A stretch of 64,000 nt of DNA, taken from NCBI GenBank assembly GCA_963774955.1, contig CAVZGV010000004.1, forward strand, positions 296,716-360,715. Reading direction: 5' to 3'. A program made the translations under genes and the position numbers. The stretch is from Candidatus Falkowbacteria bacterium (GTDB lineage: Bacteria; Patescibacteriota; Patescibacteriia; CAIXNZ01). The notes under the pieces were generated by a model, which saw nothing but the letters and a program-made list of their open reading frames with translations, did not search any database and was not told the DNA's origin. Below, one piece after another: positions 4,256-51,707 of the stretch; positions within the stretch are counted from its first letter, which is position 1, and each line of letters opens with the position of its first letter.

Positions 4256-4795
4256 ATGATTATACTTCAAGCCTTGTATTTCCTTTTGCCGGCTTATTGC
4301 GCCAATATGGCGCCGGTTTTTGCAGCTAAGATTTTTGGTAATAAATATAGTACACCGCTTGATTTTGGCTATCAGTATCAGGGTAAGGATCTTTTAGGTA
4401 AAAACAAGACTTGGCGGGGGTTATTTTCCGGGATCATTGTTGGCATTTTTATAGTATCTCTGCAGGGATATTTATATCAGTTCGGATTTTTTAAAAAAAT
4501 CAGTATTATTAATTATGAAGCCATTGAGGCCATGGTCTACGGATTTTTATTCGGTTTTGGGGTCATCTTGGCTGATGCTATTAAAAGTTATTTTAAAAGA
4601 AGAAAAAACCTGAAGCCGGGTGCCAGGTGGTTTCCCTGGGATCAGCTGGATTTTGTCGGCGGTTTGATACTTATCTTGTTTGTTTTTTTACCGCCCTGGT
4701 ATATTTTTGTTTTAGGTTTAGTTATTTCTCCATTTTTACCCTTAGCCGCTAATTGGCTCGGATATAAATTAAAAATTAAAAAAGTAGCCTGGTAA
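4256..4795 (+). CDS. CDP-archaeol synthase (CarS, DUF46)-like CTP-transferase membrane protein
   Basis: 179 aa, multi-TM, GKNKTWRG motif typical of the CarS family. The -10 box TATAAT ends about 7 nt before the ATG, suggesting a leaderless mRNA. Confidence 0.5.
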   Translation: MIILQALYFLLPAYCANMAPVFAAKIFGNKYSTPLDFGYQYQGKDLLGKNKTWRGLFSGIIVGIFIVSLQGYLYQFGFFKKISIINYEAIEAMVYGFLFGFGVILADAIKSYFKRRKNLKPGARWFPWDQLDFVGGLILILFVFLPPWYIFVLGLVISPFLPLAANWLGYKLKIKKVAW

Positions 4796-4796
4796 T

Positions 4797-5420
4797 ATGA
4801 TTTTAGCAGCCTGGTATGAAAAATATAAAAAGTTTTCCATTAGTTTTCGGGCTCAATACTTTAAGCCCGTTTTAAAATTACTGGCTGGTTTGAAAATTAC
4901 TCCCAACCAAATTACGACTTTCCGTCTTATCTTTATTTTGCCAATAGTCTATTACTTTGCCACGGAAAATTTATGGGGGGTTTTTGTTTTTTATCTTCTG
5001 TTTTGGCTGTTTGATCTTGTTGACGGCGCTCTGGCTCGATATTTAAATCAAACCAATGACAAGGGCCGGTTTTTGGATACGTTGGTTGATAACTTTATGT
5101 ACGGAGTTTTAATGGTCGGCCTGATTCATTTACAGGTTGCCTGGATATCACTTTTGGCTATAAATATTGTTTTAGAATATATTGTCCAAATTCTGGCCAT
5201 GATTGTCCGTCAGCCTGAAATTAAAAGTGATTGGCTTTTTAAGGCCGAAGCCAACTTGCCTTATTTTAAATCAGTCAGTCATCTTGGCTTGTTTATGTAT
5301 CTGTTCGGTCTGAATTTTTTAAATTTTATTTATTATTTTTTAAATCTGGCCTTGCTCGGTTTGGCCGGATATTTTTATCTGCAGCTTAAAAATAAAGATT
5401 TAAATATTAACTCCAAGTAA
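4797..5420 (+). CDS. CDP-alcohol phosphatidyltransferase family protein
   Basis: Signature DGALARYLNQTNDKGRFLDTLVD matches D-G-x2-A-R-x8-G-x3-D-x3-D. Multi-TM. Translationally coupled to the upstream gene (TAATATG). Confidence 0.8.
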   Translation: MILAAWYEKYKKFSISFRAQYFKPVLKLLAGLKITPNQITTFRLIFILPIVYYFATENLWGVFVFYLLFWLFDLVDGALARYLNQTNDKGRFLDTLVDNFMYGVLMVGLIHLQVAWISLLAINIVLEYIVQILAMIVRQPEIKSDWLFKAEANLPYFKSVSHLGLFMYLFGLNFLNFIYYFLNLALLGLAGYFYLQLKNKDLNINSK

Positions 5421-5984
5421 ATGCTGGTTATTAGCATAGTCACTTTAATTAAATTATTTTTACTTCTTTTGGCCTTTCTGCTTTTAGGAACTGTCGGCTT
5501 TATTATGGGCAGTTTCCGAAACAAAGTGCCTTTTGTGCCCACGCCCAGGAGAATTATCAGAATTATGGTGGCCATGGCTGGTATTTTGCCCAATGAGAGA
5601 ATTTGCGATTTGGGGTCAGGGACCGGCAGGATACTTTTTTCAGTGGTTAGAAAAAACAAGCAAAATTTAGTGGTAGGCTTTGAAAAATCTTTTACTTTAA
5701 GGCTGGTCAGTAAGTTTTGGCTGGCTATACGGCCATGGCTGAAAAAAAGAGTCCGGATAGTTAATGCGAATTTTTTCAATCTTGACCTTTTTGAGTACGA
5801 CGTTATTTTTTGTTTTTTAACACCTGACGCCATGAGAATCTTAGCCCCGAAATTCCAGACTCTCAAGCCGGGCAGCCGTTTAATTTCCTATATGTTTCCT
5901 CTGGAAGAAACGCAGAATTTTCAGGAAGTCATAGAACATGTGGGCGATAAAGATAGCATTTACTATTATAAGAAGGTCTCATAA
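5421..5984 (+). CDS. SAM-dependent methyltransferase with N-terminal TM helix
   Basis: Motif I ICDLGSGTGRILF. Abuts the preceding stop (TAAATG). Confidence 0.65.
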   Translation: MLVISIVTLIKLFLLLLAFLLLGTVGFIMGSFRNKVPFVPTPRRIIRIMVAMAGILPNERICDLGSGTGRILFSVVRKNKQNLVVGFEKSFTLRLVSKFWLAIRPWLKKRVRIVNANFFNLDLFEYDVIFCFLTPDAMRILAPKFQTLKPGSRLISYMFPLEETQNFQEVIEHVGDKDSIYYYKKVS

Positions 5985-6075
5985 TAAATAAAGAATGAAG
6001 TCGGCTATATACTAATAACTAATAACTTATAACTAAGAACTAAAAACTTAGGAAGATTAATTTAATAGAATTAAT

Positions 6076-6855
6076 ATGCTAGTCAAACAATTACAACAAA
6101 TCGGCTTGACCGAAAAAGAGGCCAAAGTTTATGTCGGGGTCTTGGAGCTGGGGGAGGCGACTGCCCAAGAGGTGGCCCAAAAGACCGGCTTAAACCGGGC
6201 CACAACATATGTAACCTTGGAGTCTCTGCTGGCACAGCATCTGGTTAATCGGGTCGACAAACAGAAAAAAACTCTTTTTACCATTGAGCATCCTTTGCAG
6301 ATTTTGGATTTGTTGCATAAAGAAAAACAGGACGTGGAAATCCGCATTAATCTGGCCAAGGCCTTAATGCCTGAACTGGAAATGCTGGAAAAAGTAACCG
6401 GCGAAAGCGCCAAAGTCAGATTTTTTGAAGGTAAAGAAGGCCTTATGATGATGCAAAAAGATTTTGTGCGCAGTAATCCAAAATTTACAGATGAGATTTT
6501 TAATTTAAATCTTGCTTTAAAGCATTTTCCCGTTTCAGACCATGACCATCGGCAAATTATTAGAAAGAAACAAAAAGCCGGTAGAATGTTATTAATATAT
6601 AATCCCAAAATTCCAATTCCTTATTTTCCGCCATTCCCTGGAAAGGAGTTAAGATATTTACCTGAAAATAAAAATTTATTTCAAGCAGATATTGTTTTTT
6701 ATAATGATAAAGCAGCCATTTGTTCAGTTGAGGGTAAATTAATGGGTATTATCTTACAAAATAGAGCTATTATAGATGGTTTGAGATTTTTATTTGAATT
6801 GGCTTGGCAGGGTTCAGAAAAATACATGAAAGTTTCGGAAAATAAAAAACCCTAA
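6076..6855 (+). CDS. TrmB-family HTH transcriptional regulator
   Basis: N-terminal LTEKEAKVYVGVLELGEATAQEVAQKTGLNRATTYVTLESL is a TrmB-type wHTH. Confidence 0.7.
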   Translation: MLVKQLQQIGLTEKEAKVYVGVLELGEATAQEVAQKTGLNRATTYVTLESLLAQHLVNRVDKQKKTLFTIEHPLQILDLLHKEKQDVEIRINLAKALMPELEMLEKVTGESAKVRFFEGKEGLMMMQKDFVRSNPKFTDEIFNLNLALKHFPVSDHDHRQIIRKKQKAGRMLLIYNPKIPIPYFPPFPGKELRYLPENKNLFQADIVFYNDKAAICSVEGKLMGIILQNRAIIDGLRFLFELAWQGSEKYMKVSENKKP

Positions 6856-7514
6856 TATGGGGACATATTAAGGTTTTAGGAAGGCGCCAAAGTGTTTTGG
6901 CTCCTTTTATTTTCGCAATTATCAAAGCCGGCAATGACCAGCTCAGTTCGCTGTCAGGAAGAGATTCGTGGTAGCGAATGATAGGAGAAATAGGTTCCAA
7001 TAATTTTCCAGGGGTAAGCACATCCCTATAAAATTATTTGGACTGATTATAGCCTAGCGGCTTGGTTAAGCTTTCGGACTAAAAAGACATAATTCTGGCA
7101 AATATCCAGCATGTTCGCTGATGTCGGTGTGCTTCATCTTTGTGCGCAGGCTGAATTCATAAATATCCTGATTCTGTCCTGAAAAAGTTTTTTGATTCTG
7201 GCAGAAATTCAGTTGTCATACAATGGTAGCTAACCGCCACCAGGACAATGCGCAATCGGGCGTAAGAGCCAGCGTTTAAAAACATTAACGCTGTCTAAGT
7301 TATTAATCAACTTTCCCCTGAGAGCCATGGCTATAACTCTGATCTTTTCCTACATAGGAAAAGGGTTATAGATCGACATCGGCCCTGTTGTTGACTAATC
7401 ATTTTTTTTCTCCTTTCACTGTTTGATTTCATGTTAATGAACGATCAGGTTGATACTTATAGTATAGCAAATATTTGTCAAATTTAGATGTGGATAAAAG
7501 CGCCCTGGATATCT

Positions 7515-7546
7515 CTTTGTCAGTCAGCGGTTAATTTGCTATAATA
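7515..7546 (+). promoter_or_regulatory. sigma70-like promoter upstream of hsp20 (TTGTCA ... TGCTATAAT)
   Basis: -35 TTGTCA and extended -10 TGCTATAAT. The spacer is about 19 nt, slightly long. Confidence 0.4.
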
Positions 7547-7574
7547 GAATCAGTAAATATAGACATTTTATACT

Positions 7575-8054
7575 ATGGACGAGCAAACGCCCGTGTTTTT
7601 TACGAGTTTCGATGAATTAAAGGACAATTTGGAAAACGGTCATGGCGCTGACCGCTCTCTTTTGAGTTTTGACGGGCAGTCTTTGAAAAACAGGGACCAG
7701 GAAAATTGGTTTAACGAAGATTTTGAGGGAGAATTATCCGTCGATGTTTATCAAAGCGGAAATACTATTATTGTTAAATCCACGATTGCCGGAGTCAAGC
7801 CGGAAGACCTGGAAATTTATGTCCATAATGATTTGTTAACCATCAGAGGTAAAAGGGAAAGTGAAAGTGAAGAGGACGGTTCTGATTATTTTTTTAAAGA
7901 ATGCTACTGGGGCGGTTTTTCCCGCTCAATTATTCTGCCCGTGGAAGTCCAGGTTGATAAGATTGAAGCGACTTTAAAACATGGCATTTTAAAAATTGTG
8001 CTGCCGATTTCTCAAAAATCAAAATTAATTAATGTCCAGGTTCGCCAGGATTAA
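7575..8054 (+). CDS. Hsp20/alpha-crystallin family small heat-shock protein
   Basis: Alpha-crystallin domain (VDVYQSGNTIIVKSTIAGVKPEDLEIYVHNDLLTIRGKRE ... ATLKHGILKIVLP). Confidence 0.85.
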   Translation: MDEQTPVFFTSFDELKDNLENGHGADRSLLSFDGQSLKNRDQENWFNEDFEGELSVDVYQSGNTIIVKSTIAGVKPEDLEIYVHNDLLTIRGKRESESEEDGSDYFFKECYWGGFSRSIILPVEVQVDKIEATLKHGILKIVLPISQKSKLINVQVRQD

Positions 8055-8056
8055 GT

Positions 8057-8290
8057 ATGGCGCAAATATTTGTCACCATTGACCGTTTTGAGGGGGAAAA
8101 GGCTGTCATCATTTTAGATGATACTCAGACCTTGGTTGTAGCTAAAAAAGTTTTACCGCAAAATAGTAAAGAAGGCGATATTATAGAACTCAATTTTTCT
8201 GTTAGTCACTCACAAACAACGGCTGTCCGAAATTCCGCCGCAAAATTATTAAAAAAAATAATAAATCGCCAAGGCCATGAAAATACTTGA
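8057..8290 (+). CDS. DUF3006-like small protein
   Basis: MAQIFVTIDRFEGEKAVIILDD...LPQNSKEGDIIEL pattern. Its end overlaps the vanW-like start by 14 nt. Confidence 0.4.
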   Translation: MAQIFVTIDRFEGEKAVIILDDTQTLVVAKKVLPQNSKEGDIIELNFSVSHSQTTAVRNSAAKLLKKIINRQGHENT

Positions 8291-10223
8291 AATTTTAGGC
8301 ATTCAAAAAAAAGAGGAAAAACCCCAGAAAAGGTTAATGCTTGAGTTAACCGTTTTTTTTATTTTGCTGATCCTAATTATTTTGATCGCTACCCCGGTTA
8401 TTGCTTATGAAAAGTTATATAAGGATAAAATCTATTCCGGTGTTTATATTGACGGGATAAATATAGGTGGCCTGGAAAAAAATCAGGCCATTGATGAAGT
8501 AAACCGAAATTACGATAATATCAGAAATAACGGCTTGAGTTTTACTTTTAACAATCAAAATTTTAATCTGCCGATTACCGCTGTTTCACCGACTGATCCT
8601 GACTTGGCTTTTGAAGTTTTTCGCTTTAAGGTGGATGAAATGGTGGATAAGGCTTATTTGTATGGGCGGTCAGGTCGTTGGGATGAGAAATTTAGCCAGC
8701 AGTTGGTGGCCTTATTAAATGGGGCCGAGCTTCCTTTGGAGTATGATTTAAATAATGATGAGCTGATAAAATCCCTGATGGGGCGGTTCAGCCAATTTGA
8801 AAATCCTGCTCAGGATGCCAAAATTACCTTTGGTGATAATGGGGAAATTAAAATTTTACCGGATAATGACGGATTTGTCATCGATTACAACCAGGCAATT
8901 ACTGACTTGAAAAACAATTTTAATCTGATAGCTATTAACAGTATTCAATTGAAAACCAAGCCGGGCCTTGCCCAGGTGCGTAAGGCTGATGCTGAGAAAT
9001 TATTACCGAAGATTAAAGACATTATCGACAGGGAAAAGTTTGTTTTAAAATATCAGCCTTTAACCGACGATGATAAGATTTGGGAAATTAAAAACTCAGA
9101 ATACAGGAATTGGTTGGGTTTTGCCAAGGCCAATGATCAGATTAATGTTGTTTTTGAGGCAAATTTAATCAACGGTAAATTAGATGCTATCGCTCAGGAA
9201 ATCAATGTCGCGCCGCAAGATGCTAAGTTTCAGATGACCGACGGCAAGGTTACTGAGTTTAAGCCGGCTTTGCCGGGCTTGGAGCTTGATAAGGACGTAA
9301 GTTTGGTTCAGCTTAATCAGGGGTTTATTGCGGACAAAAAAACAGAAATCGAATTGGCAGTCAAGGAATCTGCACCAAATAATAAAACAGAAGATTCTAA
9401 TGACCTGGGTATCAAGGAATTAATCGGCAAAGGGGTTTCAGATTTTGCCGGCAGTCACACCAACAGAATTAAAAATATTAAAAATGCCGTCGAGCATCTG
9501 AATGGCTTGATTATTCCGCCGGGAGAATTTTCAACCGTTGACGCAATTGGTGAAGTTAATGCGGCTACTGGTTATTTTCAGGAATACGTGATTAAAGGTG
9601 ACCGGACCATACCCGAGTACGGTGGCGGTTTATGTCAGATAGGGACGACTATGTTTAGAGTAGCTTTATATAGCGGGTTACCAATTACAGAAAGAAGACC
9701 CCACTCATATATTGTTTCTTATTACAAACCAATCGGTATGGACTCGACAATTTATGGGCCGCATCCGGACTTGAAATTTTTAAATGATACTGGCCACAAC
9801 CTTTTATTACAGATAAAAATTGAAGGCACAGAATTAACTTTTGAATTTTGGGGCACTAGTGACGGTCGTAAAGTGGAAATCACTGATCCCGAGTTATATA
9901 ATTGGACCGGTATACCCGCTGACAGGCTGATTGAAAATCCGGCATTAAAGCCCGGTGAAAAGAAGAAAATGGAAACCGGACGTCGTGGCGCTGATTCCCA
10001 TTTTTATCGTTATTTGACCTTACCTAACGGTGAGAAAAAAGAAGAAATTTTCCGCAGTCATTATGTGGCCTGGCCAAATATTTATGAAGTCGGGATTACA
10101 CCCAAACCAGAAGAGCCGCCTGTAGAAACTGGTACTTCAGAGCCTAGTACTTCAGACAGTGCTTCTGCCGGCCAAAGCGGCACAGCCAATACAAATACCA
10201 ATACAAATACCAACTCTCAATAA
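8277..10223 (+). CDS. VanW-family protein (N-terminal TM, PG-binding-like region, VanW domain), low-complexity TN-repeat tail
   Basis: VanW core YGGGLCQIGTTMFRVALYSGLPITERRPHSY; C-terminal TNTNTNTNS. Confidence 0.75.
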   Translation: MKILEILGIQKKEEKPQKRLMLELTVFFILLILIILIATPVIAYEKLYKDKIYSGVYIDGINIGGLEKNQAIDEVNRNYDNIRNNGLSFTFNNQNFNLPITAVSPTDPDLAFEVFRFKVDEMVDKAYLYGRSGRWDEKFSQQLVALLNGAELPLEYDLNNDELIKSLMGRFSQFENPAQDAKITFGDNGEIKILPDNDGFVIDYNQAITDLKNNFNLIAINSIQLKTKPGLAQVRKADAEKLLPKIKDIIDREKFVLKYQPLTDDDKIWEIKNSEYRNWLGFAKANDQINVVFEANLINGKLDAIAQEINVAPQDAKFQMTDGKVTEFKPALPGLELDKDVSLVQLNQGFIADKKTEIELAVKESAPNNKTEDSNDLGIKELIGKGVSDFAGSHTNRIKNIKNAVEHLNGLIIPPGEFSTVDAIGEVNAATGYFQEYVIKGDRTIPEYGGGLCQIGTTMFRVALYSGLPITERRPHSYIVSYYKPIGMDSTIYGPHPDLKFLNDTGHNLLLQIKIEGTELTFEFWGTSDGRKVEITDPELYNWTGIPADRLIENPALKPGEKKKMETGRRGADSHFYRYLTLPNGEKKEEIFRSHYVAWPNIYEVGITPKPEEPPVETGTSEPSTSDSASAGQSGTANTNTNTNTNSQ

Positions 10224-10312
10224 GATCAATGAAAAAAGACAAACCGTCATTCAAAACGGAGTGAAGAATCCAGGACTTCATGGATTCCACGCTGCGCTCT
10301 GAATGGGTATAA

Positions 10313-11365
10313 GGGGTCCAAACTGGTTGGTGAATTAATGATTTTTGAAATGAATATACCAGCTAATGTAATTGTTTCTGTTATCTTTGCTTAATCCTGA
10401 ATGCTGGCGATACAATCTTTTTAAACGAGAAAAATATCCTTCAAGTTTATTCGTTGATTTGGCGATATTCGGATTATCTAAATAATGGAACATGTCGGGC
10501 AAGGCATGAATTACTAAGCTTCTAGTTCTTTGCAAATCACTAAAGACTTTGTGGTTACAGTCGAGTCTTGAAACCGCTTTGCCGAATTTTCTTTCCCACT
10601 TATGAAAATCTGAAATAAATTTATGTTTTTCCGGATAATTGTTAATGTTTGTTACCGCCAGTAATATCTTGCGTAATTGTATCGATGGCTCCAGTTTAGG
10701 ACGCATTCTTAACCAAGATAATCCCTGCCTCTGGATATGAACGATACAGCGCTGTATTACGATATTCGGCCATGCGTCCTTTAAGGCTCTAATTACGCTA
10801 GTATTACCGTCAATTGTAATGGCTGTAGGCTTGATTCCTTTATCTGACAGCTCCTTGAACAGCTCAAGGGCGGCAAAGTAATTTTCACGCCTTAAATACC
10901 TATTTGTGATGATTTGGCCATTGGCATTATTCATTGCCAGCATTAAGCAATTCATGCGGTGGAAATATGTACCATCAAAAAGCAGATATTTTATTCCGGT
11001 TTGTACGTTTAAAGGGCTCGGTAATTTTGCGAGCCAATAACTGATTATTCCCTTAATTGTTTTCCTGCTGTGGTGGCTAATTCCCGAAATTTGCCTGACT
11101 GAATATCCTTCGGCTATCCATAATTTAAACCATTTAAGTTGGCGGTTCAATTTATTCTTTGCATTGCGGAAAACAAACAGTCGATTGCACTTCCCGCACT
11201 TGAATCTTTGCCGTCCGCAATCATTTTGGCCATAAAAAATTACATTATTAGAGGAGCAATCTGGACAAGTTTTTTTTCATAATATTGAACCAGTTTAATA
11301 TTAAGTATCAATTTTAATCTAACCTTAACAGAAATTTTGTCTTTTCACCAACCAGTTTGGGTACC
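10313..11365 (-). mobile_element. IS1595-family (ISXO2-like) insertion sequence, about 1.05 kb
   Basis: Terminal inverted repeats: ccaaactggttggtgaa at 10318-10334 pairs with ttcaccaaccagtttgg at 11344-11360, a 17/17 match. They flank a single DDE transposase gene. Confidence 0.65.
10335..11150 (-). CDS. IS1595/ISXO2-like DDE transposase
   Basis: Motifs LFDGTYF, ITIDGNTSV, QRCIVHIQRQ and STNKLEGYFSRLKR match H...TNxxEgfwsxLKR. An in-frame upstream extension to about 11240 with no ATG encodes a Cys-rich zinc ribbon (DCGRQRFKCGKCNRLF), so the real N-terminus is probably upstream of the annotated M. Confidence 0.65.
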   Translation of the reverse strand: MNRQLKWFKLWIAEGYSVRQISGISHHSRKTIKGIISYWLAKLPSPLNVQTGIKYLLFDGTYFHRMNCLMLAMNNANGQIITNRYLRRENYFAALELFKELSDKGIKPTAITIDGNTSVIRALKDAWPNIVIQRCIVHIQRQGLSWLRMRPKLEPSIQLRKILLAVTNINNYPEKHKFISDFHKWERKFGKAVSRLDCNHKVFSDLQRTRSLVIHALPDMFHYLDNPNIAKSTNKLEGYFSRLKRLYRQHSGLSKDNRNNYISWYIHFKNH

Positions 11366-11470
11366 ATTTACCCTGAATGACAACCTGACGGTTTGTCTTT
11401 TTTTGTTTATTGACATATTTAATTTTTATGCTAAGCTGGAGTCAAACATTGAACAAAGGAGGAACGAATC

Positions 11471-11779
11471 ATGGCCCACAATGTCAGTAAGACAATTCTT
11501 CATGAAGCCAAAAGCCCTCAGGAACTGCTGGAGTTCCTGGCCGAGCACGCTGCCCGGTATCAGGCGGAAACGGAAATCGAGCATCCCGCCTATCAACTGC
11601 AATTGCTGATTGAGTTTCATGAAAAAACCGGCTACTGGATCCTTTATTCCCAGCGGGTCTTGAAGCCAGACTTCGGCGGCCAGGTCTATCAGGAGCAGAC
11701 AAGGGAACACCTGTTCGCCGTCCACGAAGCTTCAGTCAAACGCGGCCAGGATATGGCCAAAGTTCCGGACACTCTCTAA
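11471..11779 (+). CDS. hypothetical protein (102 aa), GC-rich coding sequence
   Basis: SD CAAAGGAGGA; strong terminator 11798-11830 (gcccccg / cgggggc + T-run). Codon usage is GC-biased relative to the neighbours. Confidence 0.5.
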   Translation: MAHNVSKTILHEAKSPQELLEFLAEHAARYQAETEIEHPAYQLQLLIEFHEKTGYWILYSQRVLKPDFGGQVYQEQTREHLFAVHEASVKRGQDMAKVPDTL

Positions 11780-11831
11780 CCAGAATCACAAAAATCACAG
11801 CCCCCGGGTTTTTTCTCGGGGGCTTTTTTAT

Positions 11832-12602
11832 TTATTTTTTATACTCTTTCGACCCCAGCCACAAGCCTTCAAACATGGCTTTAAAGAAGTCATTGATTTC
11901 CTTGGACTGAATCAGGATGGCTGAGAGTTCATCCAGGGAGGAGATTATGGCGACTTTATCGTCAAAGATGATCATGACTGATTGGAAATGGCCTTGCATA
12001 ATTTCAGGCAAATAGCGGGGATTGCGGTCTTTGATTTCTTCGGGTGTCAGGCTGCGGCGGCCGGGGTTGTTTTCCCAAAGCGAGCGGGCCGTGATCTGGC
12101 GGGTTTGACGGGTTTGGATGAAATAGTCCGCGTATTTTTTATCAAATTCCGAAAAGAAATTTTTATTGGGCGCGATAATATCCCAGTGCCGGGATTTGCA
12201 ATATAAGGCCTGTTCCACCACCAGCTTAATGCCGCTGATGCCTTCATAATGTAAAACATTAGCCTGGCCTAATTGCCGGGCATTTTTGGGTTGCAGCAAG
12301 GGCAGGACCTGGTCCAGTTCTTTTTGCTGGTCCTGCAAGACCTGAATCTGGCTGGTAATCAGGCGTTTGATGTCTTTGGGCTCGGTCATGATAAAAGCCA
12401 GACGGTTGGCCGTGCCTTTATTGGCGACCAGGCCTTTGTGCATTAGAGTGTTTAAAGCGTGGTAAATAGTAGTGCGCTTAATACCCGTGATTTTTTCCAG
12501 TTCCTTGACCCCGATACTGGGAAAATCCAAGCCGGCCAAGTAAATCGTGGTTTCAGTGGCGGTTAAGCCAAGGCTTTTTAAGATAGTCGTTATTTGATCC
12601 AT
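11832..12602 (-). CDS. TrmB-family HTH transcriptional regulator (second paralog)
   Basis: N-terminal LGLTATETTIYLAGLDFPSIGVKELEKITGIKRTTIYHALNTLMHKGLV. Confidence 0.7.
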   Translation of the reverse strand: MDQITTILKSLGLTATETTIYLAGLDFPSIGVKELEKITGIKRTTIYHALNTLMHKGLVANKGTANRLAFIMTEPKDIKRLITSQIQVLQDQQKELDQVLPLLQPKNARQLGQANVLHYEGISGIKLVVEQALYCKSRHWDIIAPNKNFFSEFDKKYADYFIQTRQTRQITARSLWENNPGRRSLTPEEIKDRNPRYLPEIMQGHFQSVMIIFDDKVAIISSLDELSAILIQSKEINDFFKAMFEGLWLGSKEYKK

Positions 12603-12861
12603 ATACTTAAATTTAGCTCATATATTTATTTTTGTCAATGATATGTTGAAAATTAAAATTGCTAATTTTAGCATAAAATAATCTTTGTCATTCAATGGTT
12701 ATAAACACGTATTGTAAGCAGGTCAGGGATTTTATATATTTTAAGCAGTAAAACTGGAACCTTGACAATTCAACCCAATACGCCTATGCTTAGAAGAATA
12801 TTAAATTGTTTGAAGGCCCGCCTTCGCTCCTACGGAGCTTCGGCGGGCAAGGAGGAAATCA

Positions 12862-13739
12862 TGAAGAAAATCGACTTTCACGCCCATACTTCGGATCATA
12901 AGCTTTGGGGTCTGCACACGCAGACTGCCACGATTTCTGATTTGGTGAAACTGGCCGCCAAATACGATTTGCATAAAATCGTTTTGCTGGCCACATATTT
13001 TCCCTTCAAAGGCAGCGGTCTAAAAAATCAAGAATTGTTGGAACGTATTACTGGTAATCCGCTTTTCTGCATGTTCGGCAGTTTGGATGTTCAAAATAAT
13101 TTTGAACAGGGTTTGCAGGAATTGCGGGAACTGGCAGCGCAAGGGAAAATCTGCGGGCTTAAATTGTATCCTGGCTATCAGGTTTTTTCTCCATCTGACC
13201 CGAAAGTTTTTCCGGTCTATGAACTGGCCAGGGAGTTTGATTTGCCGGTCATGTTTCATGGCGGCGAACTGCATCATTGTTGCCAAAAGGAAGATCGGCA
13301 AAAAGGTCTTTTCCGTTGCGGCCAGGCTTGCAAGATTGATCAGTTGGGACATTTGTCTCAGCCGCAATCTTTTGAGGGCGCGATTAAAAATTTTCCGTCA
13401 GTCAATTTCATCATCAGCCATCTGGCTAATCCCTATTTTGATGACCTAAGGCGGTTGATGAACCTTTACCCTAATATCTTCACGGACATATCCGGCCAGT
13501 TTTTGTCAGGCACTGACGAAGCCAGTTCGGCTTATCAGCAAATGGTGGTCGGTGAAATTAATAAATTTCTGCAAGTGTCCAATGGCCCTGACAGGTTATT
13601 GTTCGGCACTGATTGGCCCATCCAATCATATGACGACTCAATCAGACTGATTGAGTCGCTTAACCTCAGTGCAGCGGACCAAAATAAAATTTATTTTGCC
13701 AATGCTGCCAAACTTCTTAAACAAGCCCTCCTTCGCTAA
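12862..13739 (+). CDS. amidohydrolase-2 / TIM-barrel metal-dependent hydrolase family protein
   Basis: MKKIDFHAHT start preceded by GGAGG. The six-frame ORF starts at 12762, but that upstream part translates a conserved hairpin repeat. Confidence 0.65.
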
Positions 13740-13768
13740 AGCTACGGAGGGCAAAGGGAGGATTAGTC

Positions 13769-14432
13769 ATGAACAAAAAAGTATTGGTCACAGCAGGCTC
13801 GACCAGGGTTAGGATTGATCAGGTTCGGGTAATTTCCAATATCTTTAAAGGCACAACCGGTACGCAAATCGCCGCTTACTTTCAGAGATCAGGGCGATAG
13901 CGTAACTTTAATCACTTCCAACCCCAAACTGGCGGCGACTTTAAAGGTCTCTAAAGTTGATGATTATCGCACCTTTGATGAACTGGCTGACCTGATGGAA
14001 TCTTATATCACTGAACGTGATTTTGATGTCATCATTCACTCAGCTGCAGTCAGTGATTACAAAGTTACCGGCCTCTTTACCCGTGAATTTCCTGAAGGGG
14101 AACTTATCAGCGTGGATAATTCCGCCAAAGTTTCTTCTGCTCATGAGGAGTTATTTCTCAAGCTGTCACCGACTTCCAAACTTATTGATCAGATCCGTCA
14201 GCCCTGGAATTTTCAGGGCGTGCTGGTCAAATTCAAACTGCAGGTCGGCATGACCGACTGGAATCTGATTGATCTGGCCAGAGATAGCCTGCACTATTCC
14301 CATGCCGATCTTATCGTGGCCAATTGCCTGGAATGGGCTCGGGAATATGCTTATATCCTGGATAAAAAAAACAACGTCAAACAAGTAGACCGCGCTGATT
14401 TGGCGGCTGAGCTGTACAGGAGGACCAGATGA
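13769..14432 (+). pseudogene. coaB: phosphopantothenate-cysteine ligase CoaB (DFP domain), interrupted by a +1 frameshift near 13895
   Basis: Frame 1 reads MNKKVLVTAGSTRVRIDQVRVISNIFKGTTGTQIAAYFQRSGR* and stops at 13898-13900. Frame 2 continues DSVTLITSNPKLAAT...DVIIHSAAVSDYKV. CoaB homology is continuous across the two frames. Confidence 0.6.
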
Positions 14433-16183
14433 AAATTTTGCTGGGTGTAACATCTAGCGTGGCTGCCAAGCTGACTCCCAAACTGGTTAAGCTTTTGCTT
14501 AAACAGGGCCATATGGTTCAGGTGGTGGCCACGGAAAAATCTTTGTATTTCTGGCAACAGGAACAGCTGGAAATTCCGGTGGTGACTGAAGCTGATGAAT
14601 GGCCGGGTACTCAGTATGATCAGGACGCTCCCATTGCTCACATTGCTTTGCGGGAATGGGCTGATTTGATGCTGATTGCTCCGCTGACTGCCAATACTCT
14701 GGCCAAAATGGCCAATGGTCTGTGTGACAATTTGCTGTCCAGTATTGTCCGCTCCTGGGATCCACAAAAACCAGTCGTGATCGCGCCGGCCATGAACACT
14801 AAAATGTGGGAGCATCCGCTGACAGCTGAACAGCTGAAAAAGCTGGGTGAGTGGTATCCGCTTTCCGTTGTCCAGCCGATTGCTAAAAAATTAGCTTGCG
14901 GTGATTACGGACTTGGCGCCATGGCTGATTTGGACACGATCGTTCAGACAGTACAGGACGTCATCAATTCACTAAAGCAAAAAAAACAAGAACCCAAGAG
15001 CCCCAAAAAAATCACGGTCATCGGCGGTCCCATCAGCCAGGCCATTGATCCGGTGCTGAACCTTGTGCCGAGTGGCAGAGGTGAGCTGGCACATAAGATT
15101 GCCCTGGAATTTGAGCGACAATTTACTGATGTTGATCGCCTGGGTAATTTTGAGCAGAGCAAAAAGTGCGACTACGTTGATCTGGAGCAGGAAGTCATTA
15201 ATCTCAAGAGCGACGTGGTAATTTTCCTGCCCCATATTGCCAATGTCCTGGTGGACAAGCAGGCGACCAAGATTCGGGTGGCTGAAGGCGAGGAATCTGG
15301 TATCAAAGTTATCAGCGCGCCCAAGCTGGTCAATCTGGTCAAACAGTTTCATCCTGAAGTTCTGCTGGTTCCGTTCAAACTTGCAGAACAGGATATGGGC
15401 AAGGCGAAAATCGTTAAATGGATGTTGGAAGCCCATGCGGCTCTGGCGGTTTATTCCCGGCTGGGCAATTCCAAGTCATTCTGGATCATTGATGCTCTGG
15501 GAAATGAAACGCCCGTGGCCAAAGCTGATTTACCGGTTGAACTGGTTGCTCAGGTCCAAAAATATCTGCAGGCCATCAGACGCCGCAGTGTAAAAAAAGG
15601 CGAAGCCGTGCCACCGGTACCGCATCTTGAGGACTGGGTGAATTTTTCCCGGCAGATGCAGCCGGCTTTTAGCCAGATCATGGAACGAAATGTGGCTACT
15701 GGTCGCTGGCCAGGAAATTTTTCTTTCCGTTGCACGCACGGCTTTATGTCTGAACGTTGCGAGCAGGGCTTTGTCATCACCAAACGCAACGTGGCCAAAA
15801 GCGGTTTACAGCCTGATGACTTTGTCTTGGTCAATTTGGAACTGGAAGACGAGCAATTGTCTTATCAGGCTAAAGGCGAAGCCAAGCCCAGCATTGACGC
15901 GCCGATTCACCGTTTGATTTACGAAAAATTAAGTTGGGTCAAAAGCATTGTCCATGGCCATTTGCACATTGTTCTACCTCCGGAAGCTGATGTCATGCTC
16001 GAACAATGGCCTTGCGGTGCGGAAAACGAAGCCATCGAGCTTCTGGAAATCGCGCCACAGGAAAAAAGTCCTTTGTGGGTAGTTAATGTTACCGGCCACG
16101 GTTTCATTGCCCTCATCGGTGATGAAGATCCGTCTGCTTCTTTGGAGGAGCTAAGCCGGCTTGATTACAAAGTTACCTATTAA
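14429..16183 (+). CDS. fusion protein: phosphopantothenoylcysteine decarboxylase flavoprotein (CoaC) + CoaB-like domain + class II aldolase/adducin-like domain
   Basis: N-terminal flavoprotein (LLGVTSSVAAKL...PAMNTKMWEHP). Middle VIGGPISQAIDPVLNLVPSGRGELAHKIA matches the CoaB signature. C-terminal ITKRNVAKSGLQPDDFVLVNLE...KPSIDAPIHRLIY is aldolase class II-like. Confidence 0.65.
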   Translation: MKILLGVTSSVAAKLTPKLVKLLLKQGHMVQVVATEKSLYFWQQEQLEIPVVTEADEWPGTQYDQDAPIAHIALREWADLMLIAPLTANTLAKMANGLCDNLLSSIVRSWDPQKPVVIAPAMNTKMWEHPLTAEQLKKLGEWYPLSVVQPIAKKLACGDYGLGAMADLDTIVQTVQDVINSLKQKKQEPKSPKKITVIGGPISQAIDPVLNLVPSGRGELAHKIALEFERQFTDVDRLGNFEQSKKCDYVDLEQEVINLKSDVVIFLPHIANVLVDKQATKIRVAEGEESGIKVISAPKLVNLVKQFHPEVLLVPFKLAEQDMGKAKIVKWMLEAHAALAVYSRLGNSKSFWIIDALGNETPVAKADLPVELVAQVQKYLQAIRRRSVKKGEAVPPVPHLEDWVNFSRQMQPAFSQIMERNVATGRWPGNFSFRCTHGFMSERCEQGFVITKRNVAKSGLQPDDFVLVNLELEDEQLSYQAKGEAKPSIDAPIHRLIYEKLSWVKSIVHGHLHIVLPPEADVMLEQWPCGAENEAIELLEIAPQEKSPLWVVNVTGHGFIALIGDEDPSASLEELSRLDYKVTY

Positions 16184-16188
16184 CAACA

Positions 16189-16218
16189 AAGCCGTTCCGC
16201 GTTGCGGAACGGCTTTTT
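16189..16218 (+). terminator. rho-independent terminator
   Basis: gccgttccgc gtt gcggaacggc followed by ttttt. Confidence 0.6.
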
Positions 16219-16339
16219 AAAATTGCCGAAAACGGCAACGTTTACATAAAGTAGAGACGAGGTTAACCGCGTCTCTACCGTCCATTTACATAAAATACAG
16301 CCGTTTTCGTGGTTCCGGTCGGTTTTTTTACGCTAACTA

Positions 16340-16369
16340 TTGACAAAAAGTTTTAAATGTGCTATTATA
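16340..16369 (+). promoter_or_regulatory. consensus sigma70 promoter (TTGACA-18-TATTAT), promoter module copy 1
   Basis: ctaactattgacaaaaagt...gctattat; a near-identical copy is at 16791-16819. Confidence 0.55.
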
Positions 16370-16427
16370 TAGATACAAAAATAAGCGTCTGAACTTTTAA
16401 CTGCAACCTTTTCAAAGGAGGATACAT

Positions 16428-16697
16428 ATGTATACTCAGAGCAACTCGCAGACTTACGAACCCCCGACCATGCCCGGCAACTGGGAGCCGGAGGACCTCG
16501 CGCTGATGGATGCCGAGGAAGCTTCCTTTCCCTGCGATGAAGACGAAGCAGAATATGAAGAGGAAGAGCGTCAGGCCTTGGAGCGGCAGCGCCTGGAGGC
16601 CATCTACCAGGAGGATATCCTGGAGGCCTTCGCAGACCGCGATTGGCAGCATCAGTTGAGTGTGGCGTTTCTCGCCTCCCTCGACCCAGCGTACTAA
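16428..16697 (+). CDS. highly acidic small hypothetical protein (89 aa), GC-rich
   Basis: SD CAAAGGAGGA; D/E-rich; terminator 16711-16745. Confidence 0.5.
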   Translation: MYTQSNSQTYEPPTMPGNWEPEDLALMDAEEASFPCDEDEAEYEEEERQALERQRLEAIYQEDILEAFADRDWQHQLSVAFLASLDPAY

Positions 16698-16790
16698 AAA
16701 AATACCCTCACACCCCGGGAGACTTTTATCCCGGGTTTTTTATTTGTAAGCCATTTTCAGCGTTTATTTGAGGTTATTTCCCCCTAACTA

Positions 16791-16819
16791 TTGACAAAAA
16801 GTGAAATATATGCTATTAT
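16791..16819 (+). promoter_or_regulatory. consensus sigma70 promoter, promoter module copy 2
   Basis: ctaactattgacaaaaagt-N9-tgctattat, identical core to copy 1. Confidence 0.55.
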
Positions 16820-16876
16820 GTAATGATGTGTCTTTTTTAGGATTGATTGTTTTTACCACTATAACCAAGGAGGAAT

Positions 16877-17617
16877 GTGATGTCGAGTACTGAGGATAAT
16901 GGTGTTAAAGTGGAAACTACGGACAATGTTCATCATCATTTCGAAGATCCGCTGGGAGTTTTCGACGGCTATGGCGAATACGACGATCGTTATTTTGATG
17001 AAGAAGAAGACTGGTGCGATGAGGAGGATCGTCCACGGGAAGAAGATTCTATGGGGATTTTCGCCGGCTACGGCGAATTCGACGATCATTACTTTGCCGA
17101 GCCGCCCATGTGCAAATGGGAAGACGGCGACGATTTCCGTGACGAATGGCTGTACGGCGACGACTTTCCCACCCCGGCCAGATTTGCGGGCCTTGAAGTT
17201 CCTCCTCCCAAAACACGGTGTACCATCAACTTTGCGGAGGAGATAAAGACATCGCGAAATCGCCTTTGGCGAAAGCGTTGCCTCGGCAAGAATCCGAGGT
17301 ACAAATGCAAGCGCCAGGGCAAGCGGTTTTCCACCATCCTGCATGCTCATGTTGAGCTGACTCGGGAGGAGTGGTTCCTCTATGACCAGATGAACGCGCA
17401 GGAGCAGTCCTTCAGGGATCGAATGGAGGACGAGAATGAGAGCTTCGACGAGGACATGAGGAGTCTCAACCAAGATCTGGCCACCATTCAGCAGATGATA
17501 GCTGAAATGTGGGCAGACCGTATTCCCCGCTGGTTGATCGAGCTCCAGACCGAAATCGAGATCAAGATGTACGAGCGTCAACAGGAGTTCAATGAGCGGT
17601 ACCAAATGGCCGCCTAA
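16877..17617 (+). CDS. acidic hypothetical protein (246 aa) with an internal duplicated GxFxGYGE(Y/F)DDxYF motif, basic Cys-containing middle and coiled-coil C-terminus
   Basis: SD CCAAGGAGGA; GC-rich codon usage; terminator 17632-17665 (cccccggg / ccggggg). Confidence 0.55.
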   Translation: MMSSTEDNGVKVETTDNVHHHFEDPLGVFDGYGEYDDRYFDEEEDWCDEEDRPREEDSMGIFAGYGEFDDHYFAEPPMCKWEDGDDFRDEWLYGDDFPTPARFAGLEVPPPKTRCTINFAEEIKTSRNRLWRKRCLGKNPRYKCKRQGKRFSTILHAHVELTREEWFLYDQMNAQEQSFRDRMEDENESFDEDMRSLNQDLATIQQMIAEMWADRIPRWLIELQTEIEIKMYERQQEFNERYQMAA

Positions 17618-18316
17618 AAGCAACAACCTAACACCCCCGGGACTTTTACCGGGGGATTTTTTTATACAAAAAAACACCCCGTCAAACGAAGTGTCTTCAT
17701 CTATGCCGCTACGCGGCACTTTCCAAAATCTGCAGACAAGAATATCTGAAGAAGGAATAATCTAGCCGGAGCCGGATTGAAACCTTTTTCGGACACCCAT
17801 GCTTATCGTGCCTGCAGATTTTGAAAAACAATTTGATTAAATTGCTTCCCCAAAGTCGCCCAAAATGATGGTCATGCTGTTTTCAGGGGGAATAGAAACA
17901 GCTCTAACCGCCAATTGGACGATACTTAAACTTATCATAATACGGAAAACTTGTCAAGAGAATGACAAGTTTTCTATGTTTTTGGCTTATTTTAGAGGAA
18001 TTTTGTTTATTATTCTATTATCTGGAATTATGTTGTTTTTAAGCTAAATCTTGAATAAATCTGCCAGTCGGCTTCTTACTTTTTATAACTAAAAAGTAAG
18101 CAAAAAGTTTTGGGGGTGCTCAATGCGCTAGTGCATATGGTTAGTACGTGGTTTTGATAATGACGCTTAGTTCGCACCCCCAAACCCCCGGGGAGGGGTG
18201 AAAAACGTTTTGAGTAATAAGTTTAAGATTACTTTATGATTTTGTCTACCAGCCCATATTTAACTGCCTCTTTCCACCTTCGCTCCTGCTGGAGCTTCGG
18301 TGGATTTCGGTTTACA

Positions 18317-28493: not shown

Positions 28494-28769
28494 ATGACTC
28501 TCAAATCCGCGCATTTTTCTCAAAAACTGACAATCACCTTGTTAGTTTTTTTATTTATCTTTTCCCAGCCTGGCATTTTGCTGGCGGCCGAAGAAGCTGT
28601 AAATGACAATACCGTTTCGGTTAACACGACCGAATCCCCGGCCGAACCGGCCACTGACACTTCAGCTCAGCCGGCTGTAACTCCTGAAACACCGACAGCC
28701 CAGACGGTTCAGATCAGGCTACGGCTGATGCGGTCAAAGCTGACACGGAAACGCCAGATCAAGGCATGA
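28494..28769 (+). CDS. signal-peptide-bearing N-terminal segment, probably the true N-terminus of the giant RHS protein separated by a frameshift
   Basis: Signal peptide MTLKSAHFSQKLTITLLVFLFIFSQPGILLAAEE plus a PT-rich linker. The last 20 residues (RLRLMRSKLTRKRQIKA) look out of frame. The giant ORF frame upstream of its ATG reads linker-like sequence (DGSDQATADAVKADTETPDQG). Confidence 0.4.
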   Translation: MTLKSAHFSQKLTITLLVFLFIFSQPGILLAAEEAVNDNTVSVNTTESPAEPATDTSAQPAVTPETPTAQTVQIRLRLMRSKLTRKRQIKA

Positions 28770-31700
28770 ATACTTTAGACAGTTCCGGAGGAGAGGTGTA
28801 CGGAGACGTCTCCAATATTACTGATTCGCCCAAAACCAATAAATCAAATTTGGAAGTTGATCAGAACTCTGGTGCCTTATTATATAAATACCCGATACAA
28901 GTTCCTCCGGGCAGAAACGGCCTGCAACCTGACTTGGCTTTGAGTTACAATAGTCAGGATTTAAAATACGACAGTGAATTCGGTTATGGCTGGGGTATAA
29001 CTATTCCATACATTGAAAGGTTGCTTAAAAAAGGTATTGATAAGGCGTATACTGAAAATTATTTTACATCGTCTTTGAGCGGAGAATTGGAAGATGTTAG
29101 TTTGAGCGATGGGCATCACGGCACTTATGGCGCTAAAGTTGATAGCGGAGATTTTCTTAAATACGAGTTTAATACCAGTAACTATTGGTTGGTAACCGAT
29201 AAAAAGGGGACTGTGTACAAATTTGGATACAATGCTTCAGCTCGCCAGAATGATCCTAGTGACAGCTCACATGTGTTTAAATGGATGTTGGAGGAAGTCC
29301 GCGATACCAATAATAATTACATTAAATATGAGTATTATAAAGATAATGGTCAGATTTATCCCTCGGCGATAAAATATACCGGCTATAATACGACTGACGG
29401 AATTTTCGAAATAGATTTTTTAAGAGAAAGCCGGAGCAATGACTACGTTTCTTATAAAGAGGGTTTTGAAGCAACAACTGGTTATAGGATTTATGAAATC
29501 CAGGCCAAAGTTAGTGGGACATGGGCTAGAAAATATGAGCTGGACTATACGGCATCAAGTGAAAATGATTGGCAGGAATTATTAACTTCTATAACTGAAA
29601 GTGGCAATGACGGTAGTCAGACAATCAGTTTACCAGTTACTACGTTTACTTACCAAACGAATGGAGGATACGTTTTTTATACTCAGGATCAGAATGTTGA
29701 TTTTCCAACTAAAGCATATAATGCGATGTGGAACGGTCATGCCAGCAACGGCACTTTTTCAACTGATGCAAATGGCGACGGCCTATCCGATATTGTCCAA
29801 TATAAAGTAGGTTATACAAACTGCCAATATTCTTTAAGCAGAAGTTTTTTAAGTAACGGGAACGGTTGGGATGAATCAAGTGAATGGACTTCATTTAATT
29901 TAGCTAAAGAACAATATTGCCATAGTAATGGAGATTTTAGCGTATATTTAAGACCTGCGATTTTTATCGATATAAACGGAGATGGTTTATCTGATTTTGT
30001 GAAAAGTGGAATTAGATTAAATAACTCTGCTAATCAAGACTATGTAAGTATCAGCTGGAATATTCCCTTATCATTAACCGATGCCAATGGCTATGGAATT
30101 CAAGACTACGTTCATCTTGGAGATTTTAACGGCGACGGACTAGTTGATTATTTTGCTAAATATTACATAAATGGAAATTGGCATATGGATATTATGCCCA
30201 ATTTAGGTAATGGCTGGTATGTTGATAATACTTGGAGTTTCCCAAGTTATCTGAGCGATGGCATAATTTATAATCACGGCATTAAATTCGCGGATATTAA
30301 CGGTGATAGCCTGGACGATATATTGGTATCGCAGAATGATGACCAATACGGGACAATAAGAAAAGTATATTTAAACACCGGTGCCAAAAGTTGGGCGGAA
30401 ACAACTGATTTTACAATTTCTAGCAGCCTTGTTTTTTTTATCAGGCATACAAATCCCGATCAAAATATGGTTATGCCTATAGAATTTAATGATCTAAACA
30501 AGGACGGTTTAACTGATGTTATTTATGACGAGAGTGTTTATATAAATGACGGTTCGACCTTTATTGATACTACTGATATTACCTCTTTTTATAGCCCTTA
30601 TTTTGGTCAAATCTCCGGCCGAAATTTCATGGAAATAAACGGAGATGGTATGCCCGATTATTCCATATCCTCCAAGTCAGGCATTGATGAATCATATTGG
30701 GTCGGTTCCCAATATGAAAATTCAGAAGATTTAAGTAGTATTTCTAAATCGGTGTATATTAATCAAAAAAAGCCTTCGGGATTATTGATAGGTGTTGAAA
30801 ATTCCAAAGGCGGGTCAATGGAAGTTACTTACAAAGGTTCGGGTGAATACAAAGGTAGTAATGATAATTTACTAAATCCGCATTTGCCGGTGATTGTCCA
30901 GACCGTCTCCCAGATCACCTACAATGACGGCCTAAATAATTCATGGTCGGAAAATTACCAGTACGCCAACGGTGAATACTATTTTTCTGACTACCTGAAT
31001 CGCAAGCTGGCGGGATTTGGTTTGGTGACAAAGACTGATGCGGGAGGGAATGTTACGAAGTCATATTTTCATCAGGGGAATACTACTGACTCAAGTCATG
31101 GCGAATATTCTGATGATGTTTCCAAGATCGGCAAGGTTTATCGCGCAGAAGTTTATGATGACTCGGATAACTTATATTCAAAGTCCATTAATAAATGGGA
31201 AAATTATGATTTGGGGAATGACAGGGATTTTGTGAAGTTAACGCAAACGATTAGTTTTAGTTATGACGGTAATACAAGTCATAAGGACAAGGCTGAAACT
31301 TACACTTATGACAATGCGACCGGCAATTTGACGCAGAAAGTTACCTGGGGCGAGGTGACGGGTTCGGATAACGGCACGTACACGGACACCGGAACGGATA
31401 AATTTACGACTGATATAGACTATGCGGCCACTACGGGTAGCGCAGTCATTGGCTTGCCAAGCCAGGAGACGACTGAAGATCAAAGCAGTAATAAAGTTAA
31501 GGAAACCAAGTATTATTATGACAGTCTGACTTTGGGCAATGTGGATAAAGGCAATCTGACCAAACAGGAAATGTGGAAATCAGGCACCAGTTATATTGAT
31601 GTTGAAAAGACATATAATTCTTACGGCATAGTTACCCAGGAAAAGGATCCGCGCGATAAGACAACGGATTATACTTATGATTCATATAATTTGTATCCGG

Positions 31701-49928: not shown

Positions 49929-50247
49929 ATAAATCATGAAATTTGAAAAATAAACACTTTAGTGACCAGCAATATGGGGGTAGTAGTGCATTAGGTCAGT
50001 AGAGTTTTCCGGCTCAGCTAGAAAACTTCTACGCCTGGTGTTTAACTGATAAGGCTCTGTCCTATATCAGTCGTCTCGCTTCGCGGGACAACACCTCCAT
50101 ATTCTTGGTCATTAAAATAGTTCGAGCTTCTAACAAAGGGCACAGAGTTCCATTTAAATTTAAAATGTACTTTTTAAACAGCGGGACTTCTTAAGCCCTT
50201 TGTCAGGATCTTGAACGCTTTGTCTAACTGCAAGAAAGGAGAAAAGA

Positions 50248-50409: not shown

Positions 50410-50588
50410 GCCGAGATCCACAGCACGAGGGACTGTCAAAAGTCCCTACTTCACCCCAAGACGGGATAGTCTCGCGTAGATTATTTTGTCTTGAGGCGAG
50501 GTCTTAAGTGATCTTTCAAAATTGTTGGTGGAGAAATCCACGCCTATCAGGGAGCAATTCCTGATATACAAAAAAGGAGGAGACGCCC

Positions 50589-51413: not shown

Positions 51414-51414
51414 C

Positions 51415-51672: not shown

Positions 51673-51707
51673 TTAATAAAAAACAATAATCCCCAGCCAA
51701 GGAGAAA

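Follow-up and report, generated by a model that had tools for sequence, protein, structure and literature searches.

Three small GC-rich genes in single-gene expression units at an accessory hotspot of a Candidatus Falkowbacteria genome

Bacteria of the Candidate Phyla Radiation (CPR) have tiny genomes full of unannotated genes. Why should such a genome keep three short, GC-rich genes, each with its own promoter and terminator, at one chromosomal place? The question is raised by a 64,000-nt stretch of Candidatus Falkowbacteria DNA (~38–40% GC; assembly GCA_963774955.1, contig CAVZGV010000004.1), termed here the window, in which three open reading frames (ORF1, ORF2 and ORF3) lie between a VanW-like gene and clpP. 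The three are independent single-gene units with consensus expression signals and are accessory at one hotspot, and ORF2 and ORF3 are fast-evolving genes with conserved motifs. Related loci carry L numbers, and coordinates are window positions unless a locus is named.

11471–11779, plus strand: ORF1, 102 aa, isoelectric point (pI) 5.75, predicted small alpha/beta fold
16428–16697, plus strand: ORF2, 89 aa, pI 4.05, net charge −20
16880–17617, plus strand: ORF3, 245 aa, pI 4.5, net charge −28

Are these reading frames genes at all? In all three the GC content at the first, second and third codon positions (GC1, GC2 and GC3) follows the pattern typical of coding sequence. The ratio of nonsynonymous to synonymous rates (dN/dS) between ORF3 and its ortholog in L001, a contig of the Candidatus Parcubacteria genome GCA_026395755.1 that is syntenic with the window and 79–87% identical in DNA, is 0.37, with in-frame indels, and ORF1 differs from its ortholog in L125 at a proportion of 0.26 of nonsynonymous (pN) and 0.78 of synonymous sites (pS). 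Such values, together with those given below, argue that ORF1, ORF2 and ORF3 are real protein-coding genes. ORF3 begins at the ATG at 16880, 6 nt past GGAGG as in its orthologs, and not at the GTG at 16877, which shortens by one residue the 246-aa product stated in an earlier note on this DNA. That the frames are spurious products of GC-rich non-coding DNA, or that the true gene lies on the opposite strand, might be suggested by the long antisense ORF over each of them (11426–11725, 16365–16652 and 16859–17719). However, every antisense ORF stands in the codon-for-codon reverse frame (calculated here from the ORF positions), the promoter, ribosome-binding site and terminator of each gene are all on the plus strand, and the sense frames encode conserved proteins, whose gaps are in frame and whose pN is lower than pS. 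Stops in the reverse frame need TTA, CTA or TCA in the sense frame, which are rare at high GC3, so that long antisense ORFs are an expected by-product; the antisense ORFs were rejected as true genes on this argument. The spurious-ORF explanation is contradicted by the evidence at hand and is extremely improbable.

The genes are not constrained to the same degree as the surrounding ones. Against L001, the dN/dS of ORF3 amounts to 0.21 for residues 1–110, 0.26 for residues 111–170 and 0.80 for residues 171–245, compared with 0.025–0.12 for neighbouring genes at similar dS; the acidic, aromatic-repeat N-terminus is the most conserved part of ORF3 between these two loci. The dN/dS of ORF2 is ~0.76–0.84. 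Compared with L123, neighbouring proteins are 78–94% identical, ORF3 36% and ORF2 44%, and pN is 0.36–0.44 for ORF2 and ORF3 vs 0.05–0.12 for the neighbours. At the protein level, ORF2 and ORF3 thus appear to change 4–8 times faster than their surroundings.

How are the three genes expressed? A sigma-70-type extended −10 promoter consists of TTGACA, a 17-nt spacer with TG at −15/−14 and a TATAAT-like hexamer, and the following signals were predicted around the genes:

11410–11437, plus strand: ORF1 promoter, TTGACA, 16-nt spacer with TG extension, TAAGCT (read directly)
16340–16368, plus strand: ORF2 promoter, TTGACA-N14-TGCTATTAT, orthologous to the ORF2 promoter of L123 and paralogous to the ORF3 promoter
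16791–16819, plus strand: ORF3 promoter, TTGACA-N14-TGCTATTAT, conserved in L001, L123 and L122
11455–11463, plus strand: ORF1 Shine-Dalgarno (SD) sequence, AAAGGAGGA
16414–16422, plus strand: ORF2 SD sequence
16867–16874, plus strand: ORF3 SD sequence
11799–11834, plus strand: ORF1 intrinsic terminator, hairpin 11799–11824, AGCCCCCGGG..CGGGGGCT, then a T-run
16714–16741, plus strand: ORF2 intrinsic terminator, hairpin 16714–16735, CCCGGGAGACTTTTATCCCGGG, then a T-run, conserved in L123
17634–17662, plus strand: ORF3 intrinsic terminator, hairpin 17634–17655, CCCCCGGGACTTTTACCGGGGG, then a T-run, conserved in L001 and L123

The predicted promoters of ORF2 and ORF3 match 11 of the 12 sigma-70 consensus positions in addition to the TG extension. 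An AAGGAGG-type ribosome-binding site, AAGGAGGA, stands 5–7 nt ahead of the ATG in all three genes, as had been noticed before, and all three predicted terminators are of the C/G-run type, i.e., a GC-rich hairpin and a T-run just past the stop codon. The genes had been described as embedded in identical expression modules; a near-consensus promoter, an SD sequence and a hairpin terminator are indeed present at each of them, but longer similarity is confined to ORF2 and ORF3. The promoter regions of these two are 80% identical over 51 nt and their terminators 77.5% identical over 49 nt, and the exact 19-mer CTAACTATTGACAAAAAGT is found only at 16333 and 16784 (2 nt off the positions first given; chance expectation 0.03). 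The ORF1 promoter resembles the other two at consensus positions only, and the ORF1 terminator is 74% similar to that of ORF3 over 46 nt. The core pattern TTGACA-N14-TGnTATnAT is present at 8 sites in the window at ≤1 mismatch, vs 0.19 expected, including sites upstream of hsp20 (7517), rpoB (20836) and a 99-aa membrane-protein gene (59752, minus strand). The core is the organism's own consensus, and only the longer ORF2–ORF3 similarity exceeds it. The earlier note had allowed that a module recurring before many ordinary genes would be simply such a consensus, and this is in part what was found. Across the relatives' loci, ORF2 and ORF3 keep orthologous, strongly conserved promoters, 5′ untranslated regions (UTRs), ribosome-binding sites and terminators. 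Judging from these consensus signals, the expression of all three genes is presumably high, which agrees with the strong promoters proposed before.

The GC-biased codon usage already remarked in the three genes is borne out by comparison with the RNA polymerase genes: GC3 is 0.63 in ORF1, 0.72 in ORF2 and 0.62 in ORF3, vs 0.35 in rpoB and 0.37 in rpoC. Most other genes in the window have a GC3 of 0.25–0.47, the genome ~0.37, and values of 0.49–0.59, likewise raised, are found in the 4.4 kb that separate ORF1 from ORF2. Is this the mark of foreign DNA, as had been thought? The composition is atypical and the genes are accessory, but recent import is not what the relatives indicate. In every carrier genome the ORF1, ORF2 and ORF3 families keep a GC3 of 0.53–0.72, despite a pS of 0.42–0.78 between genomes, and orthologs occupy the same site with the same signals; the restriction-modification gene and its neighbours right beside the ORF2 and ORF3 homologs of L123 have a GC3 of 0.22–0.36. 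The marks of a recent island, namely absence from the site in relatives and decay of composition toward the host value, were not seen, since orthologs stand at the same site in L001, L122, L123 and L125. Because synonymous sites between these genomes are near saturation, we infer that the GC-rich codon usage is probably a maintained property of the families and not a leftover of recent import.

The site itself is a slot bordered by the VanW-like gene on one side and by a conserved structured RNA beside clpP on the other. A metagenome scan with a 24-mer from the conserved intergenic RNA gave four more loci, L125 among them. The contents of the slot are as follows:

L126: empty
L125: ORF1
L122: ORF3
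L001: operon, ORF3
window: insertion sequence, ORF1, operon, ORF2, ORF3
L123: operon, NYN, MmeI-like restriction-modification gene, two uncharacterised genes, ORF2, ORF3, helix-turn-helix (HTH) gene, RAYT-like gene
L127: three toxin-antitoxin-like genes (152–1697)

Thus the presence of ORF1, ORF2 and ORF3 varies between close relatives. In L123 the additional cargo consists, at 4322–8867, of the NYN nuclease gene, a 930-aa MmeI-like type IIG restriction-modification gene and the two uncharacterised genes, and, at 11026–12193, of an XRE-type HTH gene followed by the RAYT-like gene (REP-associated tyrosine transposase, 11633–12193). The three genes of L127, one of which encodes a hyper-acidic C-terminus, look like a toxin-antitoxin system when judged by eye.

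The genes had been called orphans, and this did not hold, given that homologs of each were found at the same locus in related Parcubacteria. The three proteins are on record from one 455-kb contig. A full HMMER search with the ORF3 alignment against 1.84 billion representatives gave three ORF3 homologs, P0007 (L001), P0009 (L122) and P0008 (L123), and all four members of the family, including that of the window, adjoin clpP. A word-indexed protein search had returned a single homolog, that of ORF3; those of ORF1 and ORF2 came to light later through synteny. The single ORF2 homolog lies in L123 immediately upstream of the ORF3 homolog (about 43–44% identity, pairwise E 5e-13), and the single ORF1 homolog in L125, directly after VanW as in the window (55% identical, E 2e-32). 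All homologs are chromosomal, at the VanW–clpP locus; ORF3 occurs without ORF2 in L001 and L122, and no restriction-modification gene accompanies ORF3 in the slot of the window, L001 or L122. No relatives were found in a JGI metagenome scan with the ORF3 alignment, nor in IMG/VR viral contigs, INPHARED phages and PLSDB plasmids, where the phage and plasmid tblastn was run with ORF1 and ORF3. A scan of a genome collection with the 17-mer AACTATTGACAAAAAGT gave at least 119 unrelated genomes, taken as chance matches because the pattern is too short.

What kind of proteins are encoded? Searches of Pfam, PHROGs, PADLOC, NCBIfam and PDB sequences with the three proteins gave nothing significant (a DUF4256 match of ORF1, E 0.015, is weak and below the cut-off), and the three families are mutually unrelated. 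Two of the proteins are extremely acidic, as stated before, namely ORF2 and ORF3; ORF1 is not strongly acidic, and its structure model had no informative structural neighbour. ORF3 is built of charge blocks: residues 1–110 are acidic with aromatic repeats (net −28), residues 111–160 are basic (net +12) and residues 161–245 form an acidic helical hairpin. The internal duplication reported before is real, i.e., a 55-nt repeat, 82% identical at a 99-nt spacing, which encodes FxGYGE(Y/F)DDxYF, and a second short repeat encodes WEDGDDF and WLYGDDF. AlphaFold2 gave a predicted local distance difference test (pLDDT) score below 50 at residues 1–160 and ~90 for the helices at 162–244, by which residues 1–110 are predicted to be disordered; the best E of a Foldseek comparison of ORF3 with PDB was 0.14. 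Across the family the F.xL.xPxPK motif, the basic stretch (pI 11) and the helix start (TxxEW) are conserved. ORF2 was considered as a diverged copy of ORF3 and rejected (Smith-Waterman z ~3, profile comparison probability 1.3%): the two genes share promoter and terminator similarity, yet no homology of the coding sequences was found by profile comparison.

The explanation that we regard as probable is that three lineage-restricted accessory genes, built as host-consensus units, are kept at one hotspot, with a possible binding role for the acidic, charge-blocked proteins. ORF1, ORF2 and ORF3 would be restricted to one Parcubacteria lineage, each as a self-contained unit of an extended −10 sigma-70-type promoter, an AAGGAGG site and an intrinsic terminator, and in the one slot between the VanW-like gene and the RNA–clpP side the relatives carry varying sets of these cassettes alongside further accessory genes (CoaBC-like operon, MmeI-like restriction-modification, toxin-antitoxin-like, insertion sequence and RAYT-like genes). 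The units of ORF2 and ORF3 would represent a duplicated promoter and terminator shell around unrelated coding sequences. ORF3 may be an abundant, largely disordered, charge-blocked protein, whose basic core and acidic aromatic repeats could engage a partner at near-equal stoichiometry, be it nucleic acid or a basic protein that itself binds nucleic acid, and ORF2 may be a hyper-acidic helical companion that is dispensable for ORF3. The rapid change of these proteins and the location of their genes at a hotspot would point to genetic conflict or interaction with a host rather than to housekeeping.

Several points weigh against this explanation. No homology ties ORF1, ORF2 or ORF3 to any function; the binding or decoy mechanism is suggested by composition and predicted disorder, and the strength of expression by consensus signals. 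The related loci number only 5–8, and several stand on short contigs. The maintained GC3 lacks a demonstrated cause and may reflect repeated transfer from an unseen GC-rich reservoir. The small alpha-beta-beta-beta-alpha fold of ORF1 comes from a single-sequence model with a pLDDT of 67.

The earlier note had spoken of foreign composition and had offered DNA-mimic, anti-restriction or anti-defence proteins as a speculation; the corresponding explanation would be that recently acquired, foreign mobile-element genes under host promoters encode such proteins. Very acidic ORF2 and ORF3, the atypical composition of all three genes and the fast protein evolution of ORF2 and ORF3 are consistent with it, as are the MmeI-like and NYN genes right beside the L123 homologs of ORF2 and ORF3 in a hotspot that also takes up toxin-antitoxin-like, insertion sequence and RAYT-like genes. 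Chromosomal DNA mimics that bind HU are known, e.g., DMP12 (PMC3643605), and DNA mimics are too divergent for detection by sequence (PMC3902945), both of which count for such a view. However, the orthologs share locus, regulatory shell and GC3 across near-saturated synonymous divergence, no relatives were found in IMG/VR, INPHARED, PLSDB, PHROGs or PADLOC, ORF1 is not acidic and the ORF3 of the window, L001 and L122 has no restriction-modification gene beside it in the slot. Structure prediction, which had been proposed as a check for a DNA-mimic charge pattern, gave predicted disorder for the acidic half of ORF3, not a folded, rigid scaffold of DNA-like shape. Mimicry in the style of DMP12 or Ocr is possible, with charge as the positive evidence for it, and the explanation by recent import as a whole is unlikely. 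It is quite improbable, too, that a new CPR class of abundant, fast-evolving, hyper-acidic and largely disordered nucleic-acid mimics or decoys is met here for the first time in ORF2 and ORF3, perhaps with ORF1 as well. Such proteins would be directed against restriction or defence systems or, in episymbiosis, against DNA-binding proteins of the host; their GC-rich codons would be under selection, and their promoter-to-terminator cassettes would be exchanged at a hotspot marked by a new structured RNA.

Could ORF2 and ORF3 be a two-protein module, of the toxin-antitoxin or chaperone-client kind, in which ORF2 neutralises the basic core of ORF3? Adjacent genes in the same order in two genomes, complementary charges (−20 for ORF2, +12 for residues 111–160 of ORF3) and the common regulatory shell would fit. 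Yet each gene has its own promoter and terminator, because of which the pair is not an operon, ORF3 is found without ORF2 in L001 and L122 and has an acidic region of its own, and neither protein matches a toxin-antitoxin family. Type II toxin-antitoxin partners are co-transcribed and always found together, which is not so here, and the module is hardly likely. Alternatively, the genes may be young and lineage-restricted, weakly constrained, with little or no function, and may persist through strong expression signals. Their taxonomic range is very narrow, predicted disorder and dN/dS are high (0.80 for the ORF3 C-terminus, ~0.76–0.84 for ORF2) and they come and go among close relatives; against this stand clear purifying selection on the N-terminal half and core of ORF3 and on ORF1, strong conservation of promoters, 5′ UTRs, ribosome-binding sites and terminators, and a maintained GC3. 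We consider this explanation unlikely.

The slot contains and adjoins further features:

10305–11373, minus strand: insertion sequence, 1069 bp, with a Mutator-family transposase gene at 10335–11150, short (271 aa)
11832–16183, mixed block: accessory operon with a TrmB-like regulator (minus strand), Amidohydro_2, a frameshifted DFP/CoaB-like gene and a fused flavoprotein (CoaC-like)/DFP-like/class II aldolase gene
16228–16308, plus strand: inverted repeat GAAAACGGC...GCCGTTTTC with a hairpin between its arms, close ahead of the ORF2 promoter
17667–17957, minus strand: candidate structured RNA gene, ~255 nt, between the ORF3 terminator and clpP

The insertion sequence has 30-nt terminal inverted repeats (10305–10334 and 11344–11373, 83% complementary) and has split the VanW terminator hairpin at its loop, which leaves the hairpin arms at 10225–10249 and 11386–11410. 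That ORF1 is cargo of this element was rejected: the inverted repeats belong to the element itself, the hairpin that it interrupts lies ahead of the ORF1 promoter, and the insertion is an event separate from the ORF1 unit. The accessory operon block is present in L001 and L123 and absent from L122, L125 and L126. Its DFP/CoaB-like gene (13769–14432) is broken into pieces in different frames, 13769–13900 and 13995–14432, and is either a pseudogene or an assembly error; the L001 ortholog is intact (4701–5366, 221 aa). Counterparts of the inverted repeat are found in L001 at ~7150–7250, before the ORF3 homolog, and in L123 at ~8990–9085 and ~9790–9885, before both genes, so that L123 has two copies along with its RAYT-like gene; the inner hairpin of the window differs in sequence from those of L001 and L123. 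The repeat could be a REP-like element or an operator.

The candidate RNA, the 3′ end of which abuts the variable slot, has its own promoter of the TTGACA-N14-TGnTATnAT pattern (−35 at 17957–17952) and a terminator hairpin at 17674–17694. It is 83–97% identical across 8 loci, above the conservation of the flanking genes, and folds at −99.2 kcal/mol (z −6.2) on the minus strand vs −71.9 (z −3.8) on the plus strand; RNAalifold gave 94 pairs, 14 of them with compensatory changes, and there was no Rfam match. It is a candidate for a new structured RNA gene that bounds the slot.

Elsewhere in the window, a second GC-rich block (50200–53400, GC up to 0.54) is flanked by an IS200-like Y1 transposase gene (49146–49544) and a hupA-like HU gene (53631–53942, minus strand). 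Its ORFs at 50248–50409, 50589–51413 (274 aa, Cys-rich, GC3 0.83) and 51708–51848 combine very high GC3 with strong ribosome-binding sites and match no Pfam family, and a 49-nt direct repeat is found at 51429 and 51867. The 99-aa hydrophobic membrane-protein gene (59367–59666, minus strand; unit to 59752) is preceded by a promoter that fits the consensus perfectly, TTGACA-N14-TGCTATAAT, and by a strong ribosome-binding site; it has a GC3 of 0.57 and its own terminator, a build in the style of ORF1, ORF2 and ORF3. A 2562-aa ORF (28766–36454) lies directly downstream of rpoC.

The three small protein families are new, and accessory genes in a genomic hotspot are familiar. The locus offers a defined, comparable hotspot for the turnover of accessory functions between close relatives, and the families combine conserved strong expression signals with a codon composition that departs from that of the genome and is maintained. 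Should the acidic proteins prove to be decoys or mimics, conflict or host interaction could be approached through them in a lineage that is uncultured; otherwise, the case is a warning that acidic, GC-rich genes behind strong promoters do not suffice for an anti-defence call. The earlier sequence reading was largely right, with "foreign" and "identical module" overstated.

Among known systems, the locus may be set beside the genomic and defence-island hotspots at tRNA- or tmRNA-type sites. Like these, it is a fixed slot with conserved flanks, next to a conserved gene for a structured RNA whose 3′ end it abuts, and it takes up variable cargo (restriction-modification, toxin-antitoxin-like, insertion sequence, RAYT-like and small genes) of atypical base composition. 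In contrast to these, no integrase, att repeats or other recognisable integration machinery was seen, its cargo consists of single-gene units, each with a host-consensus promoter and terminator, and its RNA is neither tRNA nor tmRNA and matches no Rfam family. Integron cassettes, which are promoterless, end in attC and lie beside an intI/attI platform, are similar in being compact single-gene units, side by side at one chromosomal site and mostly without an assigned function. Here, in contrast, each unit has a promoter and a terminator, no intI or attC was seen, and Pfam scans of the neighbouring genes revealed no integrase.

Known DNA mimics (Ocr, ArdA, DMP12, DMP19, HI1450 and SAUGI) are folded, and the charges on their surface are arranged like those of DNA. 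With them ORF2 and the N-terminal half of ORF3 share small size, strong acidity, lack of detectable sequence relatives and apparently strong expression, as judged from the consensus signals; they differ in that disorder is predicted for the acidic part of ORF3, which is joined to a strongly basic core, ORF1 is not acidic and no association with phages or plasmids was found. A chromosomal location is common ground, as some known mimics are chromosomal and target HU (PMC3643605). Finally, like taxonomically restricted (orphan) genes, ORF1, ORF2 and ORF3 have a very narrow distribution, short length, high predicted disorder and raised dN/dS; unlike such genes, they keep strong, conserved regulatory signals, motifs under clear purifying selection and a codon composition that is held at a non-genomic value.

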